The translations under genes were made by a program, and so were the position numbers. A DNA stretch of 64,000 bases from a virus. Shown here one piece after another: positions 5,991 through 45,216 of the stretch. Location of the stretch: the IMG/VR virus record IMGVR_UViG_3300008453_000627. One strand, given 5' to 3'. The stretch's first letter is position 1. Every line of letters begins with the position of its first letter. Below the pieces are notes generated by a model. It did no database searches, was not told the DNA's origin, and worked only from the letters and a program-made list of their open reading frames with translations.

Positions 5991-6620
5991 TTAGACACCA
6001 AATACGATTCCAGCAACTAAAGACTGGATATCAACATATTGTTTTGTTGTGATTGAGTTTGCACTTGTTCCTTGAGCGCTGACAGTTGCGCCGCTGGCTG
6101 CAACAATGTTTACAACACCTGTGCCGTTGGTTGTAATGTCAATGTTTCCGTTTACACCGTCGTAAATTCTTACGCTGCCTGAGTTTGTTCCGGAGTTTGT
6201 ATTTAAAATCAAATCTCCAGTTCCATTTGTTGTTAATGTTGCATTGGCATTTGAGTCACCAATTCTAACAGTATCCGAAGTTAGATAAACATCTCCTGTT
6301 CCGTTAGGAGCAAGTTCTATGTTTCCGTTGACTCCTTGTACAATCCTTACTGTTCCGCTGTTGGTACCTGAATTAGTTGTTAACAATAAGTCTTGAGTGC
6401 TGTTTGAAGTTAATTGCCCAGCAGCACTACCGCTACCTATAAATAGTGTTCCGCCTACACTTAGAGTAGAAAGAGATCCTAGTGCAGAAAAAACAATGGC
6501 TGCAGGTGTTAATTTTTTAGTTTCAGAAGAACTAACATCTGCGATTGGTAAAAAGTCGGCATTTGCGTCTACATCTATTTGGGCTAGTAAGTCTAACTCA
6601 CTTATCTTACGATCTGGCAT
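5991..6620 (-). CDS. tail fibre protein (repeat-containing)
   Basis: 209 aa; N-terminus MPDRKISELD…; internal repeats NSGTNSGTVRIxxGVNGNIxxxxNGTG. Confidence 0.6.
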   Translation of the reverse strand: MPDRKISELDLLAQIDVDANADFLPIADVSSSETKKLTPAAIVFSALGSLSTLSVGGTLFIGSGSAAGQLTSNSTQDLLLTTNSGTNSGTVRIVQGVNGNIELAPNGTGDVYLTSDTVRIGDSNANATLTTNGTGDLILNTNSGTNSGSVRIYDGVNGNIDITTNGTGVVNIVAASGATVSAQGTSANSITTKQYVDIQSLVAGIVFGV

Positions 6621-9002: not shown

Positions 9003-10408
9003 GCAAAGATTGTGCCGCCGATTTGTGTTCCGCCGTCTGCTTTAAGTTTATGTAAATATCCAATTGTTGTTCCAGGGCCGTATGCTCTTGGATCTGCCGC
9101 AGTAAATCTATATATATCCTTAGGAGCACTAGGTAGTATATTAATGGCTCCGTCTACAATCATACCAAGCTTTGCCTTTGATGGTCCCTGTACATACCAC
9201 TTGCTGGGATTTCGGTCTTTTGGTGTACCAGTAACTGCTTGGAATTGATTTTCTTGGTTCAGTATATGGTTAACTGTCCTGCCGCCGCCGTAACCTTTAC
9301 GTGTTCTATTTAAAATAACAGCCATGACATAAGCACATTCTTTAGTATTATTACTTGCTTCTGCACCAGTTGCCTTAACAAGATCAGTCCATTCGTCATC
9401 AGACATATTACGCCCTAAGAACTTTTCTGCTGACTGTCTTGCTTCACCTATCTTTTCGTTATCAAGTTTTACATTTGATGTGCTAGAAGCAGCGTCTACT
9501 TCTTTATTACCTTTTCCAGGTTTAACATCTGCTTCAGTGCTTTTTGTAAGTTTAGCAACTATATCAGGTTTTGTTTTTAAAACATTATTAAGAGCTAAAA
9601 TAGTTTCGGGTCCTGGATCACCGTCAACTGCAATACCTGCAGCCTTTTGAAAATCTCTAATTGCTTTACTAGTTTCAGGGCCTCTAATTCCATCTACCCC
9701 GAATCTAGGTAAAGGGTAGCCTAGTGCAACTAAAGCCTTTTGCATGTCTGCTACTGCTGGCCCTCTGTTCTTATTAGGAAGAACAACCGCAAACTGAGTA
9801 TCTGTTGGCTTGCCGCCGACAGGAGGAGTTTCAGGTCTTGTTGTTGAAGATCCGAATATTCTTCGAGTTTCGTCAGCAGCTTTCCTATAAACACCAAATT
9901 GATAATGTATACCATCGTTCTGCATTGGACTTCCGTCGTAGTCAATGACTTTAACACCTACTGCACTTTTAAGTGCATCTCGAACTTCTTTTTGGAAATC
10001 CCCAGCATAGTATTTTGTTTTCTTGTTATCGCCGCTAGGAAACAACATAAACACAATGTTAGCCACGCCTTGCGCTTTGACAGCGTTAACAACATTCATT
10101 ACATCACCTACAATTTTACTTGCAGGAGGTAATTTTATTTTACCTTGACTAGTAAGGTTTTGCTTTACTACATCAGCTGTATCGTTAGCACCAACAGAAA
10201 TTAACACGTTGGCACCTTTAGGGATTTTAACAATGTTTGCCAACATTTCACGGCCTACACCTCTGCCATGTGCGGCTGCTCCGTTGACTGCTAAATTGCG
10301 AGCACCATCTAACCCTGCTGTTGTTCCTACACCTCTTGCATGACTATCACCTACTGTGTAGAAATCATCAGTTTTGGCTTCTGTTAGTTTGAATTCGTTA
10401 AATCTCAT
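8999..10408 (-). CDS. multidomain cell-wall hydrolase (GDSL/SGNH-like N-term + PG_binding_1 + SleB-like hydrolase C-term)
   Basis: N-term FYTVGDSHARG; central PGPETSKAIRDFQKAAGIAVDGDPGPETILALNN peptidoglycan-binding repeat; C-term NTKECAYVMAVILNRTRKGYGGGRTVNHILNQENQFQAV resembles SleB/Hydrolase_2. Confidence 0.55.
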   Translation of the reverse strand: MRFNEFKLTEAKTDDFYTVGDSHARGVGTTAGLDGARNLAVNGAAAHGRGVGREMLANIVKIPKGANVLISVGANDTADVVKQNLTSQGKIKLPPASKIVGDVMNVVNAVKAQGVANIVFMLFPSGDNKKTKYYAGDFQKEVRDALKSAVGVKVIDYDGSPMQNDGIHYQFGVYRKAADETRRIFGSSTTRPETPPVGGKPTDTQFAVVLPNKNRGPAVADMQKALVALGYPLPRFGVDGIRGPETSKAIRDFQKAAGIAVDGDPGPETILALNNVLKTKPDIVAKLTKSTEADVKPGKGNKEVDAASSTSNVKLDNEKIGEARQSAEKFLGRNMSDDEWTDLVKATGAEASNNTKECAYVMAVILNRTRKGYGGGRTVNHILNQENQFQAVTGTPKDRNPSKWYVQGPSKAKLGMIVDGAINILPSAPKDIYRFTAADPRAYGPGTTIGYLHKLKADGGTQIGGTIFA

Positions 10409-34183: not shown

Positions 34184-35188
34184 TTATTTAATTTGTGTCC
34201 AAACACGTTCACGTATTTGCTTTGTTAGTGCATCCGGTAATGGAACATAGTCTAAATCTATGGCATCCTTTTTACCATTCTTAAATGCCCAATCAAAGAA
34301 CTTTAATACTTCATCGCTAGTGGCTTTGTTTTTTGGCTCTTTGTACATAATGATAAAACTTGCTGAACTGACAGGCCAGGCATTAGGATTCTTTTGATCC
34401 ACAATACTCAATCCCATACCCGGAATACTGAACCAATCAGCACCATCGGCTGCGGCAGCAAATGTTAAATCATCTGGACTTACATACTTGCCTGCTTTGT
34501 TTTGTAGCTGTAGAAACACCATGTTGTTCTTTTTAACATAGGCATACTCTACATAGCCAATTGATCCTTTGATACGGTTCACGTTGGCTGCAACACCCTC
34601 ATTGCCCTTGCCACCTACTGAATTGGCAGCTGGCCATTTGACTGCGGCACCGCGACCCACACGGGCCAACCATTCAGGGCTTACTGTGCTTAGATAGTCT
34701 GTCCAGTTGAATGTAGTGCCACTTCCATCAGCACGATGCACAATGGTGATTTCAGTGTTGGGCAAGGCCTTGCCCGGGTTTAATGCTGTTAATTTTGGGT
34801 CATTCCAACGGGAAATCGTGCCCATAAACACTTCAGCCATTACAGGCCCTGTGATGCGTAGTTCTCCGGGCTTGATGCCGTCTAGATTGATCACGGGCAC
34901 TGTGCCGCCTATGATTGCGGGGAACTGCACTTGGCCTTGCTTATCTAAGTTCTCGCCACTTACGGGTGCATCTGTAGCGCCAAAGTCCACTGTGCGAGCA
35001 TTGATTTGACGTATGCCGCCCGATGATCCAATTGATTGATAGTTTAGTGTTCGGCCAGTAGCGTTCTTGTATCCTTCGGCCCATTTAGAATAAACGGGGA
35101 ATGGAAAGGTAGCACCCGCACCCACCATGTCCGTAGCACCAGCTGTGATGGCCACAGAGGCCAGTAACATTGACAGTAATCGTTTCAT
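34184..35188 (-). CDS. pstS: phosphate ABC transporter substrate-binding protein PstS
   Basis: signal peptide; GAGATFPFPVYSKWAEGYKNATG…LNYQSIGSSGGIRQI…DFGATDAP matches the PstS phosphate-binding signature. Confidence 0.85.
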   Translation of the reverse strand: MKRLLSMLLASVAITAGATDMVGAGATFPFPVYSKWAEGYKNATGRTLNYQSIGSSGGIRQINARTVDFGATDAPVSGENLDKQGQVQFPAIIGGTVPVINLDGIKPGELRITGPVMAEVFMGTISRWNDPKLTALNPGKALPNTEITIVHRADGSGTTFNWTDYLSTVSPEWLARVGRGAAVKWPAANSVGGKGNEGVAANVNRIKGSIGYVEYAYVKKNNMVFLQLQNKAGKYVSPDDLTFAAAADGADWFSIPGMGLSIVDQKNPNAWPVSSASFIIMYKEPKNKATSDEVLKFFDWAFKNGKKDAIDLDYVPLPDALTKQIRERVWTQIK

Positions 35189-35281
35189 GTAAGTCTCCTT
35201 GTGTGTTTGTTCTTACACAATATTTAAACTCAATATGATTACAGTTGTGTTACAAACAGTGCGTTTTGGCTCTTTTGAGCA

Positions 35282-35620
35282 TCACAGTATGTGCTTACAG
35301 CTCTTTCTAAACTGAAAACCAGTACAGGTACAGCTGGGTCTAGCGCCCATAGTAACAGTATAAATCTCACCCTTTGAACCCTTGACGGTCTTAGTTTGAT
35401 TGGTGTCAGTGTGCGTGTATGCTTGCCCATTGATTGAAATGATCCATGCACGAGGTATGACCCGCACGGGCCAGTCTGCAATGCCCGTGCTGAGTGCAAT
35501 AGCGTCCTCGCCAACATGCTTTAAATGCACAACCTCGCCCTGATATTCAACAGTTTCGGGAACGGCAAACTGCCATAACTCTTTACGTGCCCATTGGGGA
35601 TTACGAACAACAACCTGCAT
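35282..35620 (-). CDS. SWIM zinc-finger protein
   Basis: C-terminal SCTCTGFQFRKSCKHIL (CxC…CxH SWIM motif); start placed at MQVVVRN (35620) downstream of a promoter; ORF track extends to 35722. Confidence 0.5.
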   Translation of the reverse strand: MQVVVRNPQWARKELWQFAVPETVEYQGEVVHLKHVGEDAIALSTGIADWPVRVIPRAWIISINGQAYTHTDTNQTKTVKGSKGEIYTVTMGARPSCTCTGFQFRKSCKHIL

Positions 35621-35654
35621 AAGAGATCCTCTGTAATAACAATAACGATAGCCT

Positions 35655-35683
35655 ATTATAGCAGAGAATAAACTGTGTGTCAA
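35655..35683 (-). promoter_or_regulatory. sigma70-like promoter (TTGACA-N17-TATAAT) for the SWIM gene
   Basis: minus strand ttgacacacagtttattctctgctataat then GAGGA SD and ATG. Confidence 0.45.
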
Positions 35684-35866
35684 CCTATAAATATCTGTAT
35701 GCAATTGAGCAAACAACAACAAGAAACTTATAACGATCTAATGACGATATTAAAAACACAGGGCAAGCCCTATTTGTTTGGTTGGTTGTTGGGCGTAATT
35801 ATAAGTTTATCAACACACGATCCAAACTTACGCAGACGGATCAAAAAGAAAGCAACAGAACAGTAA

Positions 35867-36168
35867 AGGCCCCGCTGCGCTATACTATATGATCTTGCTC
35901 AGGTATTCTACGTAGTGTAGGATCAATCATCAAAGCCCAAAACTCCATTGACTCGTGTATATAGAACCTAATGACTCCTGGAACAGCAGAAGAGCTCATC
36001 CAACCTAAAGGAGCAACAGCAGTCCATAACTGCTCTTGTGTAATAGAGTCAGCAGTAGATTCATAACAGCGTATATACATGCACGTATATATCAATTTTG
36101 GCTGTGTTAACGTATAGGCCCCGCTGTGCTCTAGTGTATATACTGGTATAGCTAAAGGCCCCGCTGCG
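35867..36168. repeat. 3 x AGGCCCCGCTG(C/T)G direct repeats each followed by TATA-rich sequence
   Basis: copies at 35867-35879, 36116-36128, 36156-36168. Confidence 0.5.
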
Positions 36169-36234
36169 GATATGTATACGTGTATTGACTGTATATAGAT
36201 AGATGCGCTAGGGTGAGGCACAGTAAAGAGGCTG

Positions 36235-36339
36235 TGTGGATAACCCCTGAGAGGCCTGTGGATAACTGTAGAATAATTGTCGAGGCCTGTGTAAAGACTG
36301 TTGATAACTGTAGAAAAACTGTGTATAGACTGTGGATAA
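36235..36339. promoter_or_regulatory. cluster of DnaA-box-like 9-mers (TGTGGATAA = complement of TTATCCACA), putative replication origin element
   Basis: TGTGGATAA at 36235-36243, 36257-36265, 36331-36339 and TGTTGATAA at 36299-36307, all same orientation within 105 bp of non-coding DNA. Confidence 0.5.
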
Positions 36340-36502
36340 CTTTGAAAATTATTGATTTTTATTCAGAGTATTTTAACTATGCCTGTCTGCCCCTCACTGT
36401 AAAAAAAATTTTCTACTGTATAGCGGCCGCAGACCTGCCTGAAAATGGCGCATAATCCTGATTCTGTTGCACTTTTTTGCACTTTATCACACTGTGACCT
36501 TA

Positions 36503-36616
36503 CTGTATATACTGTGTGACTCTACTGGTCTGATATATACTGTATATACACTGTGTACGTCTTAGCTCTATACACTAGCAGTACGGTGTCAGAGTGTGTT
36601 AGACTCTTGTATATAC
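36503..36616. repeat. 3 x (c)TGTATATAC(A)CTG iteron-like direct repeats
   Basis: copies starting 36503, 36540, 36608; more TGTATATAC-like palindromes at 36136-36200. Confidence 0.45.
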
Positions 36617-36638
36617 ACTGCACTACCGGGAGATCACT

Positions 36639-36854
36639 ATGCATGACTTTAATCTACTAGCACACTTTCGATATCCTACACACTTTGCCTATGTATTTCA
36701 GCATGAACTATCAGGTCAAATACACTGTTTAAAATACAATCAGCGATCAATAGACTGGACCTACTATGCATATGAGCAGTGGGATCAATGTAAAGAATAT
36801 ATGATCGAGGCATTACCCCAGGGAGTTTGGGGATTTACTCCTGATTCAGAATAA
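36639..36854 (+). CDS. hypothetical protein
   Basis: 71 aa; GGGAGA SD; first + strand ORF after the strand switch. Confidence 0.45.
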   Translation: MHDFNLLAHFRYPTHFAYVFQHELSGQIHCLKYNQRSIDWTYYAYEQWDQCKEYMIEALPQGVWGFTPDSE

Positions 36855-36858
36855 AAAG

Positions 36859-36904
36859 TTATTCACAAAGTTATACACAATAGCTGTTGATAACCTGTGG
36901 ATAA
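36859..36904. promoter_or_regulatory. second DnaA-box-like cluster (convergent TTATTCACA, TTATACACA / TGTTGATAA, TGTGGATAA)
   Basis: boxes at 36859-36867, 36871-36879 (forward) and 36885-36893, 36896-36904 (reverse). Confidence 0.4.
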
Positions 36905-37178
36905 CTTTCTGAGATTTCAGCAGGGGTCAGCCAGCCATTGTGGTAATACTTTTGTGTTAAGGTAAAACCTTTCGCGCACCCTCGCCGTCCATCCCGCTTT
37001 ATAGTGCTTCGAACCTTTCTTGTTCAGCTGTGCTGTTTTCTTATTATGCATTAATTATAGCACCGTTTGGCTCAACCGTCAACCGGTAACCCTATAACCC
37101 TTAAGGGCTTTGGGTCTTTGATTGCGCTGTGAGCCAAAAGACAGTACAATATACACTTAAACAGCAAAAAGGAACACA

Positions 37179-37430
37179 ATGCAAAACGTATACACTGCAA
37201 ACACTGCAAAAGCTAAACTTGTGTTTAACAAACAAAAAGAAACGTATACTATTGTTATAGCTTTTAACGTTACAGAAACTAACGCAAACGGCAAACTAAA
37301 GTTTCCGCCTCGTGCTAAATGCGACTTTGTTAGCGGAGAATTTGTATACGAAAGTTTGCAAGCAGACAAAGAACGTATACTTTCAGTTGCACACAAGCAA
37401 CTGCGTACAGATTTAATAGAATTTGTTTAA
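37179..37430 (+). CDS. hypothetical early protein
   Basis: 83 aa; promoter-like TTGATT…TACAAT upstream; terminator hairpin downstream. Confidence 0.5.
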   Translation: MQNVYTANTAKAKLVFNKQKETYTIVIAFNVTETNANGKLKFPPRAKCDFVSGEFVYESLQADKERILSVAHKQLRTDLIEFV

Positions 37431-37435
37431 TTTAA

Positions 37436-37460
37436 CCCTACAGCCTGTAAGGGCTTTTTA
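37436..37460 (+). terminator. rho-independent terminator
   Basis: CCCTACAGcctGTAAGGG hairpin followed by CTTTTTAT. Confidence 0.5.
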
Positions 37461-37468
37461 TAGCGCAT

Positions 37469-37497
37469 TTGACACTGTAGCCAAAATGCGTTATAAT
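37469..37497 (+). promoter_or_regulatory. early promoter cassette (TTGACA-N17-TATAAT)
   Basis: ttgacactgtagccaaaatgcgttataat. Confidence 0.55.
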
Positions 37498-37520
37498 AAG
37501 TTTTTAACAAGGAGCACAGT

Positions 37521-37673
37521 ATGCAAGACGCTATTAGCACAAAAGATAAACTAACTAGTTTAATGTTGCAAATGCAAGACATTATTATGCAAGATTATGA
37601 GGATAATGTGGATATACAAGATGCATTTAATGCATTAGCAAGTGCTTTTGATTATTATATAGATGAAGAATAA
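37521..37673 (+). CDS. small acidic protein (50 aa)
   Basis: MQDAISTKDKLTSLMLQMQDIIMQDYEDN…; AAGGAG SD; below the ORF-track cutoff. Confidence 0.4.
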   Translation: MQDAISTKDKLTSLMLQMQDIIMQDYEDNVDIQDAFNALASAFDYYIDEE

Positions 37674-37691
37674 TATTATATAATAACAAAG

Positions 37692-37714
37692 ACCCTGCGA
37701 TGTGTAGGGTCTTT
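37692..37714 (+). terminator. terminator-like hairpin
   Basis: ACCCTgcgatgtgtAGGGT then TCTTT. Confidence 0.4.
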
Positions 37715-37716
37715 AG

Positions 37717-37745
37717 TTGACAAGCTAGCCAAAAGGCGCTATAAT
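37717..37745 (+). promoter_or_regulatory. early promoter cassette
   Basis: ttgacaagctagccaaaaggcgctataat. Confidence 0.55.
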
Positions 37746-37775
37746 AGAAGCTTAAACAGTAACAAGGAGCTGATC

Positions 37776-38036
37776 ATGGCAAAAGGACTTTTTCAATTCA
37801 TCGGTGTGTCGCGTCATCCCAATGGTGAAGTGGCGGTTCGTTACGCTAACGATGCAGGTCGTGTGCGTGTGCTGGCTCGCAATGGTCACACTGACATTGA
37901 GTTTATCGAGCTTGAGCGAGCAGAACATGTTGAAGAAGCAATGTCTGCACTGATGGACTTTGTTGAAGACAACGAGCGTATCGATCTGTTGGATGTAGTG
38001 TTCAACGAAGCAGAACGTGTTGGCTTTACTTTTTAA
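37776..38036 (+). CDS. hypothetical protein, paralogue of 44133..44507
   Basis: FIGVSRHPNGEVAVRYANDAGRVRVLARNGHTDIEFIEL vs VVGTSKLNGEMKVRFANDVMRVKVLAKHGHTDINLIEL. Confidence 0.55.
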   Translation: MAKGLFQFIGVSRHPNGEVAVRYANDAGRVRVLARNGHTDIEFIELERAEHVEEAMSALMDFVEDNERIDLLDVVFNEAERVGFTF

Positions 38037-44927: not shown

Positions 44928-45012
44928 GCTCGGATGGTGAAATAGGTAGACACAAGAGACTTAAAATCTCTCGCTGAAAGGCGTGCCGGTTCGATTCCGG
45001 CTCCGAGCACCA
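44928..45012 (+). tRNA. tRNA-Leu (anticodon TAA), class II long variable arm
   Basis: acceptor GCTCGGA/TCCGAGC, anticodon loop CTTAAAA, T-loop TTCGATT, variable arm cgctgaaaggcgtg, encoded CCA. Confidence 0.8.
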
Positions 45013-45056
45013 AGAATACCAAAGTAAATTTACAGGGAATACCAAAGTAAATTTAT

Positions 45057-45133
45057 CTGACTGTAGCTCAACTGGATAGAGCAACAGCCTTCTAAGCTGT
45101 AGGTCGGGGGTTCGAGTCCCTCCAGTCAGGCCA
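45057..45133 (+). tRNA. tRNA-Arg (anticodon TCT)
   Basis: acceptor CTGACTG/CAGTCAG, D-arm TAGCTCAACTGGATAGAGC, anticodon loop CTTCTAA, T-loop TTCGAGT, CCA end. Confidence 0.8.
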
Positions 45134-45138
45134 GTTTA

Positions 45139-45216
45139 GGGCCTCTAGCTCATGTTGGTTAGAGCAGTGGACTCATAATCCATTGGTGCGGAGTTCGACT
45201 CTCCGGGGGCCCACCA
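45139..45216 (+). tRNA. tRNA-Met or Ile2 (anticodon CAT), elongator-type G1:C72
   Basis: acceptor GGGCCTC/GGGGCCC, D-arm TAGCTCATGTTGGTTAGAGC, anticodon loop CTCATAA, T-loop TTCGACT, CCA end. Confidence 0.75.

Follow-up and report, generated by a model that had tools for sequence, protein, structure and literature searches.

DnaA boxes at the strand switch

The viral DNA stretch analysed here (IMG/VR record IMGVR_UViG_3300008453_000627; 64,000 nucleotides, hereafter the window) has a strand switch at about 36 kb, where it holds two clusters of DnaA boxes, the 9-mer words of the host replication initiator DnaA. Judged from its sequence and relatives, the region is a conserved control module heading the early-gene block of an uncultivated jumbo-phage family, and it has not been described previously. 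A preliminary description of this DNA, made from the letters alone, had pointed to an origin-like region, and the feature proves larger than was reported then, since the second box cluster (36859-36904) and a leftward promoter (37082-37054) lie beyond the region first outlined. The two clusters and the AT-rich tract beside the first are as follows.

36235..36339, minus strand: DnaA-box cluster 1, with exact TTATCCACA in reverse orientation at 36235, 36257 and 36331, the one-mismatch box TGTTGATAA at 36299, and two-mismatch boxes at 36309 and 36320
36340..36376, no strand: AT-rich tract beside cluster 1; the 50-bp window 36325-36374 has 22% GC, the minimum of the module
36859..36904, both orientations: DnaA-box cluster 2, with forward TTATTCACA at 36859 and TTATACACA at 36871, and reverse TGTTGATAA at 36885 and TGTGGATAA at 36896

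All sites of cluster 1 share one orientation, and its right half is a run of four sites with 10-11-bp spacing if the two-mismatch sites are counted. Cluster 2 consists of two tandem pairs with gaps of 3 bp and 2 bp. Exact TTATCCACA occurs four times in the window against 0.66 expected from shuffles, and all four copies fall inside 36235-36904 (670 bp), a segment with eight boxes of at most one mismatch; the earlier claims that the array is beyond chance and that the box is found mostly here are both borne out. The boxes of the window agree with GTTATCCACAG, the extended box word of R1/R4 type in E. coli, and are as many high-affinity boxes as are expected of a DnaA sink or modulator (at least four or five in less than 1 kb outside an origin). 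By eye, a single near-consensus IHF word can be made out at 36345-36357.

Encoded in the window are rIIA, a PstS-like protein, two helicases (one DnaB-like, the other with ResIII and DEAD-box domains) and three tRNAs, and neither the module nor the surrounding 12 kb has a DNA match among 50,697 cultured-phage records. By helicase identity, the closest cultured relatives are the Pseudomonas jumbo phage PA5oct (55%) and the Agrobacterium phage Atu_ph07 (47%), and by this sequence comparison the source phage is a member of an uncultivated jumbo-phage family of the PA5oct/Atu_ph07 lineage. Two short words, viz., the GC-rich motif described below and CTATGCCTNTCTGCCCC, were used to find relatives of the module among public viral and metagenome contigs. 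These relatives collapse to 34 distinct module variants, and their rightward early genes are 30-88% identical at the amino acid level to those of the window.

Across the 34 module variants, exact TTATCCACA is found 97 times in 45 kb, as against once in 192 kb of flanking DNA, an enrichment of about 400-fold. At least three boxes are present in 22 of the variants, with 3-15 boxes where there are arrays (up to 15 in L312), and about eight variants have no box or only one. These box-less variants, which are fully covered, keep the anchor word and the GC-rich motifs described below, and seven of the eight also keep the strong leftward promoter. The arrays are mostly made of tandem pairs with 2-3-bp gaps; among 115 adjacent same-orientation box pairs, 54 are spaced at 11-12 bp and 32 at 22-23 bp. 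In a five-way alignment the boxes stand out as conserved islands among diverging spacers, and L425 and L431 have exact boxes where the window has the one-mismatch ones of 36859 and 36871. The tolerated box variants are TTATCAACA, TTATTCACA and TTGTCCACA. On the evidence of sequence comparison, there is strong selection for box arrays in two thirds of the related modules. A search of related phages for the same repeat architecture, suggested by the preliminary description, finds arrays in 22 of 34 variants, with differences in the number, place and orientation of the boxes.

These differences are considerable. Both clusters are retained in the clade of the window (L332, L349, L419-L432), and cluster 1 is missing from more distant relatives. 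The site of cluster 2 has 4-8 boxes in the relatives, with both orientations in nearly all variants. Arrays occupy one of three alternative places: upstream of the anchor in the window clade, directly after the anchor in a subgroup, and after the 71-amino-acid gene in most others. The polarity of inverted box sets is reversed between clades, and in L279 and L280 the boxes start directly after the stop codon of the convergent 71-amino-acid gene. In the variants with both features, the arrays lie downstream of the conserved leftward sigma-70 promoter. The AT-rich tract beside cluster 1 is not conserved even in L349 or L431, which belong to the window's own clade, and arrays elsewhere in the family have no consistent AT-rich neighbor. 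The largest arrays were seen in the subgroup comprising L312, L314, L359, L366, L368, L370, L387 and L393, with 6-14 same-orientation boxes at +160 to +430 from the anchor; in L312 the array repeats a unit of about 44 bp based on TGTGGATAAccTGTGGATAA.

Genes, repeats and promoters of the control module

The other features of the module, in the order of their coordinates, are listed below.

35655..35683, minus strand: perfect sigma-70 promoter (TTGACA-17-TATAAT with TG) for the leftward gene block
35867..35879, plus strand: GC-rich motif, copy 1 (AGGCCCCGCTGCG), immediately past the stop codon of the small minus-strand gene
35880..36080, minus strand: conserved small gene, 66 amino acids from the ATG at 36080; the mechanical open reading frame (ORF) extends to a GTG at 36221
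36116..36128 and 36156..36168, plus strand: GC-rich motif, copies 2 and 3
36362..36397, no strand: anchor, GAGTATTTTAACTATGCCTGTCTGCCCCTCAC, the most conserved non-coding word of the module
36467..36496, plus strand: three 10-bp phased repeats, TTGCACTTTT, TTGCACTTTA and TCACACTGTG, with three to four copies in relatives
36504..36617, no strand: GTATATAC palindromes at 36504, 36541 and 36608, with further copies at 36071 and 36135
36639..36854, plus strand: conserved early gene of 71 amino acids, 30-47% identical in 13-15 relatives
36973..37014, minus strand: conserved element just downstream of the leftward promoter, GTTCGAAG..GGGATGGACGGCGAGGGTGCGCG
37054..37082, minus strand: conserved leftward sigma-70 promoter (TTGACG-17-TATAAT with TG), firing into cluster 2
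37469..37497 and 37717..37745, plus strand: two perfect rightward sigma-70 promoters heading the early genes

The main type of module in the family has a recurrent order, beginning with two or three copies of RRGRCCCCGCTGYR that mostly flank the small minus-strand gene, followed by the anchor of about 33 bp, three or four phased TTGCACTTT/TCACACAATT repeats, the 71-amino-acid gene and, lastly, near-perfect divergent sigma-70 promoters placed back to back. The stretch had been taken for about 1 kb of non-coding DNA, which does not hold because the conserved small gene at 35880-36080 lies inside it. The product of this gene is 57% identical to that of L269 and 42% to that of L271 over the C-terminal 66 amino acids, and it is called as a 69-amino-acid gene in L425 and L428; its start is probably the ATG at 36080. 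Hence, of the two ORFs that had been dismissed as probably not genes, the first (35880..36221) is a gene in its conserved C-terminal part, and the dismissal stands for the second (36213..36455), for which we found no homolog. The 71-amino-acid protein has three homologs (P0001-P0003) with 71-96% identity. Neither small protein has a match in Pfam, PHROGs or NCBIfam; searches of the module ORFs against the same libraries gave no Rep initiator gene next to the module, and no DnaA-like or Rep-like protein was found among the larger early ORFs scanned and both module ORFs. Rfam gave no match at E <= 1 over 35000-38000.

The short repeats are specific to the module. The 13-mer AGGCCCCGCTGYG, reported earlier as a threefold GC-rich repeat, indeed has three copies (35867, 36116 and 36156) against 0.02 expected and is found nowhere else in the window, and in relatives two or three copies of RRGRCCCCGCTGYR occupy the same place. 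These motifs all point in the same direction, mostly with one past the stop of the small gene and two upstream of its start. A general role as halves of terminator hairpins was considered and rejected, as a GGGGTT 3' partner and T-run complete a weak hairpin in some relatives and are present at none of the window copies. The six or more palindrome-like repeats claimed previously are also confirmed, with TGTATATAC and its near copies at 35956, 36071, 36135, 36190, 36504, 36541 and 36608. All five copies of the 8-mer GTATATAC in the 64 kb fall within 35600-37200; a phage-wide promoter word is thus not a tenable explanation of GTATATAC/TATATAC, which is confined almost wholly to the module. Nor is CTGTATATAC a LexA box, as CTGT-N8-ACAG is not satisfied.

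The anchor could be described as GAGTAWYCATTnnnRCTATGCCTSTCTGCCCCWC in about 40 contigs. It was inspected by eye on either strand as a sigma-70 or sigma-54 promoter, and this was discarded, the hexamers and spacings being inconsistent among relatives. A variable stem after the anchor, flanking AAAAATTTTT, appeared by eye to carry compensating changes; RNAalifold found no consensus structure for the anchor block on either strand, and the post-anchor hairpin is unsupported. An extended anchor-like word, GTATTTGCGCTATGCCTCTCTGCCCCAC, was seen in L415, a Gammaproteobacteria metagenome-assembled genome (CANGBB010000004.1, at about 3650 in the anchor orientation), where it lies about 100 bp from a remnant resembling the 3' end of a tRNA with no other module element nearby; ARAGORN and Rfam gave no match at this locus.

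The divergent sigma-70 promoters of the preliminary description are upheld for the leftward side, with the perfect promoter at 35683-35655, and fail for the rightward side, as no strong rightward promoter lies in the region first outlined and the perfect ones are those at 37469 and 37717. Host RNA polymerase and sigma-70-type promoters are in use in PA5oct. Of 27 covered variants, 19 have the leftward promoter followed 8-10 nt on by TTCGAA and about 14 nt later by GGGGGTGGACGGCG; the window copy of this post-promoter element (37014-36973) is diverged. A nearly invariant TGTTCGAACATAGTGGGGGTGGACGGCG was noted at the leftward start site in L144, L267-L269, L273, L279, L280, L282, L285 and others, box-less variants included. 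It could mark the place of a small RNA, of a pause or antitermination site close to the promoter, or of an R-loop start, and the leftward promoter with this element has no Rfam match.

Among the neighboring genes, the PstS-like gene at 34184-35188 is 83-91% identical in the best 80 of 328 matching viral stretches (L001-L080). Relatives anchored on pstS or an ATPase (L001-L100) were tried as relatives of the module and set aside, since they have the gene and lack the module, and DNA homology ends at 35257. Because of its high identity and the abrupt end of DNA similarity at this point, the PstS-like gene looks like a widely exchanged auxiliary gene and not a marker of relatedness. A cluster of tRNA-Leu(TAA), tRNA-Arg(TCT) and tRNA-Met(CAT) genes at 44928-45216 is kept in L144, L280, L267 and others, with Arg and Met in swapped order in the relatives, and the same three anticodons are listed consecutively in PA5oct. 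A 599-amino-acid protein encoded on the minus strand at 94-1893 contains collagen triple-helix repeats in six separate stretches (Pfam E = 9e-40) and is, going by these repeats, probably a fiber or decoration protein.

Possible roles of the box arrays

We infer strongly, from sequence, that host DnaA binds the arrays. The earlier suggestion that the region recruits or titrates host DnaA is sound on the same grounds, because the boxes are real, form conserved islands and are enriched about 400-fold over the 34 modules. Double DnaA boxes with 2-3-bp gaps are needed by E. coli DnaA for binding in vivo (PMC11317965), and since tandem pairs are the form that DnaA occupies in vivo, host DnaA should, by these published E. 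coli data, load on the phage DNA upon its entry. DnaA bound within transcribed DNA is a known roadblock, as cited in PMC11317965. By the anatomy of the module, the arrays would lie in transcribed DNA, with cluster 2 placed between the rightward 71-amino-acid gene and the conserved leftward promoter. As cluster 2 sits between convergent transcription units, DnaA bound to it would block RNA polymerase from both sides and might insulate the early transcription units from one another. More speculatively, each new phage genome would bring 8-14 strong sites, so that occupancy would drop and host DnaA would be soaked up during replication, perhaps as a side effect of the arrays or as their second purpose. 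Our best interpretation, a tentative one with a probability of about 0.4, is that the arrays provide host DnaA with accessory landing pads and act as a transcription barrier and a sink. The variation of the boxes in number, place and orientation, together with the existence of box-less variants, is as expected of an accessory element.

Several points weigh against this proposal. Occupancy of the arrays by DnaA is a prediction from sequence. In cluster 1, and in the L312 subgroup with its arrays of 8-14 boxes, all boxes point one way, so that these arrays cannot be two-way barriers. A tendency of box-less variants to have an intrinsic terminator at the spot of cluster 2 (three of four, against about 3 of 15 box-holding ones) speaks for the proposal, but weakly, as the contrast comes from few, related variants and is not significant. 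The function of the T5 boxes, with which the arrays are compared below, is itself hypothetical. The anchor, the GC-rich motifs and the GTATATAC palindromes, being specific to the module, must have partners of their own, and they are accounted for neither by landing pads nor by any of the alternatives. Lastly, a gap at a strand switch between strong divergent promoters is a setting that also favors an origin.

A replication origin for the first round of phage DNA synthesis is the main alternative, although we consider it doubtful. In one form of this idea, DnaA on phased arrays between strong divergent promoters would aid the opening of DNA; in another, DnaA would stall the leftward transcript, the G-rich 5' part of which would serve as an R-loop primer, as in T4 oriF/oriG or ColE1; in either, the phage's own helicase would be loaded next, and the phage does encode the DnaB-like helicase and the helicase with ResIII and DEAD-box domains. 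As in oriC, boxes recur with 11-bp phasing and in both orientations, a tract of 78% AT abuts cluster 1 in the window, and a conserved perfect promoter is followed by the conserved G-cluster GGGGGTGGACGGCG and then by boxes; the GC-rich motif and TTGCACTTT, each present three times, are possible iterons. The boxes, however, shift in position with respect to all other elements, they are missing from about 8 of 34 variants that nevertheless retain the rest of the module, the AT-rich tract is lost even within the window's own clade, and no Rep-like or DnaA-like gene lies nearby among the ORFs scanned. The site is also a strand switch at which the GC skew changes sign (36 kb) and the cumulative GC skew has its minimum, the check that had been proposed for an origin, but the minus-strand genes both to the left (1-35 kb) and to the right (51-64 kb) share a skew of about -0.09, and the signal for this reason follows transcription and the orientation of genes and carries no sign of replication. 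As for an R-loop of the T4 type, the promoter is present and conserved, and the DNA downstream is G/C-rich and sequence-conserved, not AT-rich; the conservation of the post-promoter element base for base argues for a sequence-specific partner rather than mere R-loop propensity. Comparable boxes of T5 are not at the T5 origin (Davison 2020, bioRxiv 10.1101/866236). Thus, in view of the variable boxes, the lost AT tract, the skew due to transcription only and the want of a nearby initiator, we do not class the region as an oriC-type origin (the preliminary description had called it origin-like and oriC-like), and these failures lower the case for its being an origin more than the case for DnaA helping to start replication here. 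It is likewise rather unlikely, but worth stating, that the arrays capture host DnaA for either a DnaA-assisted, transcription-primed first-round origin or a copy-number timer. In the timer version, DnaA barriers would separate the early units and dissolve as replicating genomes absorb DnaA, and host initiation would be shut down too. Either version of capture, if true, would be a use of a host factor not shown for any T4-related or jumbo phage.

Less probable still is an element for DNA entry or for the genome end, as proposed for T5. The module would then be situated close to the leading end of a linear genome or to the boundary of a terminal repeat, DnaA at the membrane would retain the incoming DNA, make it pause or shield its end, and the GC-rich motifs and anchor would be used in packaging or in recognition of the end. 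In PA5oct there is a terminal repeat of 39 kb that is dense in small rightward early genes and starts with one small minus-strand gene, the same layout as here, but this repeat has no box cluster, anchor, GC-rich motif or leftward-promoter element. In T5-like records the paired boxes lie 4-6 kb from the record end, which places them within the terminal repeat in those records that have one annotated, and in several N4-like Pseudomonas phage records they lie within about 1.3 kb of the record end; the T5 entry model is nevertheless a hypothesis, and box placement here is not fixed, unlike in T5. Left ends of contigs fall at most 200 bp upstream of the anchor in seven cases against 2.0 expected (P = 0.003), yet even between relatives with 96% identity the ends are scattered, over about -440 to +130, and repeats or strain variation could equally break assemblies. 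A fixed physical terminus at the anchor is excluded by this scatter, which spreads over about 600 bp. The contigs seen to end near the anchor are L285, L298, L314, L347, L365, L398 and L407, as well as L419, L421, L423 and L424. Finally, the 9-mers might be bound by a phage-encoded protein, or the repeats kept for some other reason, with a merely coincidental match to the DnaA box. The other module-specific repeats (GTATATAC, the GC-rich motif and TTGCACTTT) clearly require other partners, and the module encodes two small conserved proteins without a family match. Against this stand the 97 exact matches to a universal consensus, often with the flanks of GTTATCCACAG, the 2-3-bp pair spacing that DnaA itself requires, and the nature of the variants TTATCAACA, TTATTCACA and TTGTCCACA, which are mostly single changes like those tabulated for T5 as DnaA or variant boxes; the ORFs scanned gave no protein with a DNA-binding domain like that of DnaA, and we regard a coincidental match as very improbable.

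Comparison with known systems

With E. coli-type oriC the module shares clusters of TTATCCACA-type boxes, their 11-bp phasing (2-bp gaps), sets in opposite orientation and, in the window, an AT tract beside one array. It differs in having no conserved unwinding element, no fixed geometry and no skew signal, and in that the boxes are dispensable in about a quarter of the relatives of a lytic phage with its own helicase. The datA and DARS loci and the DnaA-box clusters of B. subtilis are non-origin elements that tune DnaA, with several high-affinity boxes within less than 1 kb. Closely spaced boxes of opposite orientation recall the DARS core, whereas those elements are chromosomal and act on the host's own cycle. 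As in T4 oriF/oriG and ColE1/pBR322, there is a strong promoter with a conserved G-rich initial transcript, and pBR322 likewise has one or more DnaA boxes downstream; unlike at the T4 origins, the promoter here is of the sigma-70 type and not MotA-dependent, and the DNA downstream is G/C-rich and not an AT-rich unwinding element. In P1 oriR and iteron plasmid origins DnaA boxes also flank short direct repeats, but the module has no Rep gene and only the 66- and 71-amino-acid ORFs without a family match.

That T5 has DnaA boxes in pairs in its untranslated early DNA has been known since 1987. The DnaA boxes in the injection stop signal region of the first-step-transfer DNA of T5-like phages have been analysed, and the T5 origins lie near the center of the genome (Davison 2020, bioRxiv 10.1101/866236). 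On re-reading the T5 sequence, we find boxes at 6121 and 6194 in a strand-switch gap between divergent early promoters, while the injection stop region has them in pairs, at 9437/9449 and at 9498/9510. The T5 boxes adjoin CTGTATAAATATACAG palindromes, and the T5 pair TGTTGATAAgtcTGTGGATAActt is nearly the same as TGTTGATAAccTGTGGATAActt at 36885-36907 of the window. The T5-like phages thus share with the window phage paired consensus and one-mismatch boxes that are separated by 2-3 bp and lie in long untranslated stretches set among strong early promoters of the sigma-70 type, a strand-switch gap among the box sites, nearby A/T-rich palindromes built on CTGTATA..TATACAG, and conservation of the region among relatives whose genes diverge. 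They have no sequence or gene homology with the window phage, which belongs to the PA5oct/Atu_ph07 lineage. The eight boxes of T5-likes are at fixed places, whereas here they differ between relatives in number, place and orientation and are absent from some. The preliminary description had held that an oriC-like phage element recruiting or titrating host DnaA would be unusual; the arrangement has a precedent, as T5-like phages have paired boxes in their untranslated early region, and the T5 origins lie elsewhere.

A BLAST probe of the box pairs matched 339 cultured-phage records, with nearly all listed matches in unannotated gaps. About 190 of these records are Klebsiella, Salmonella or Escherichia phages, several of them named T5 relatives and all those in the lower part of the listing with genomes of T5 size, and others are N4-like Pseudomonas phages, Lactococcus 949-like phages, Pseudoalteromonas H101, Limnohabitans DC31 and gokushoviruses; no PA5oct-like or Rak2-like jumbo phage was among the 339. 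In the literature on paired DnaA boxes in lytic phages we found only the T5 case described, and the full texts searched held no experimental test of the role of the T5 pairs. The question raised is a general one, viz., why lytic phages with a replisome of their own recruit the replication initiator of the host, and the natural variation of the family, in which a relative may have 0, 4, 8 or 14 boxes and the boxes may take any of three places, offers ready comparisons for addressing it. By analogy, the arrays of the window perhaps resemble the boxes of the T5 untranslated early region, and not oriC, in the way they work, although we hold this tentatively. The element is of a known but functionally unexplained kind, the paired DnaA boxes in untranslated early DNA of lytic phages, and the same device has arisen, or has been retained, in freshwater jumbo phages of an unrelated, widespread family.

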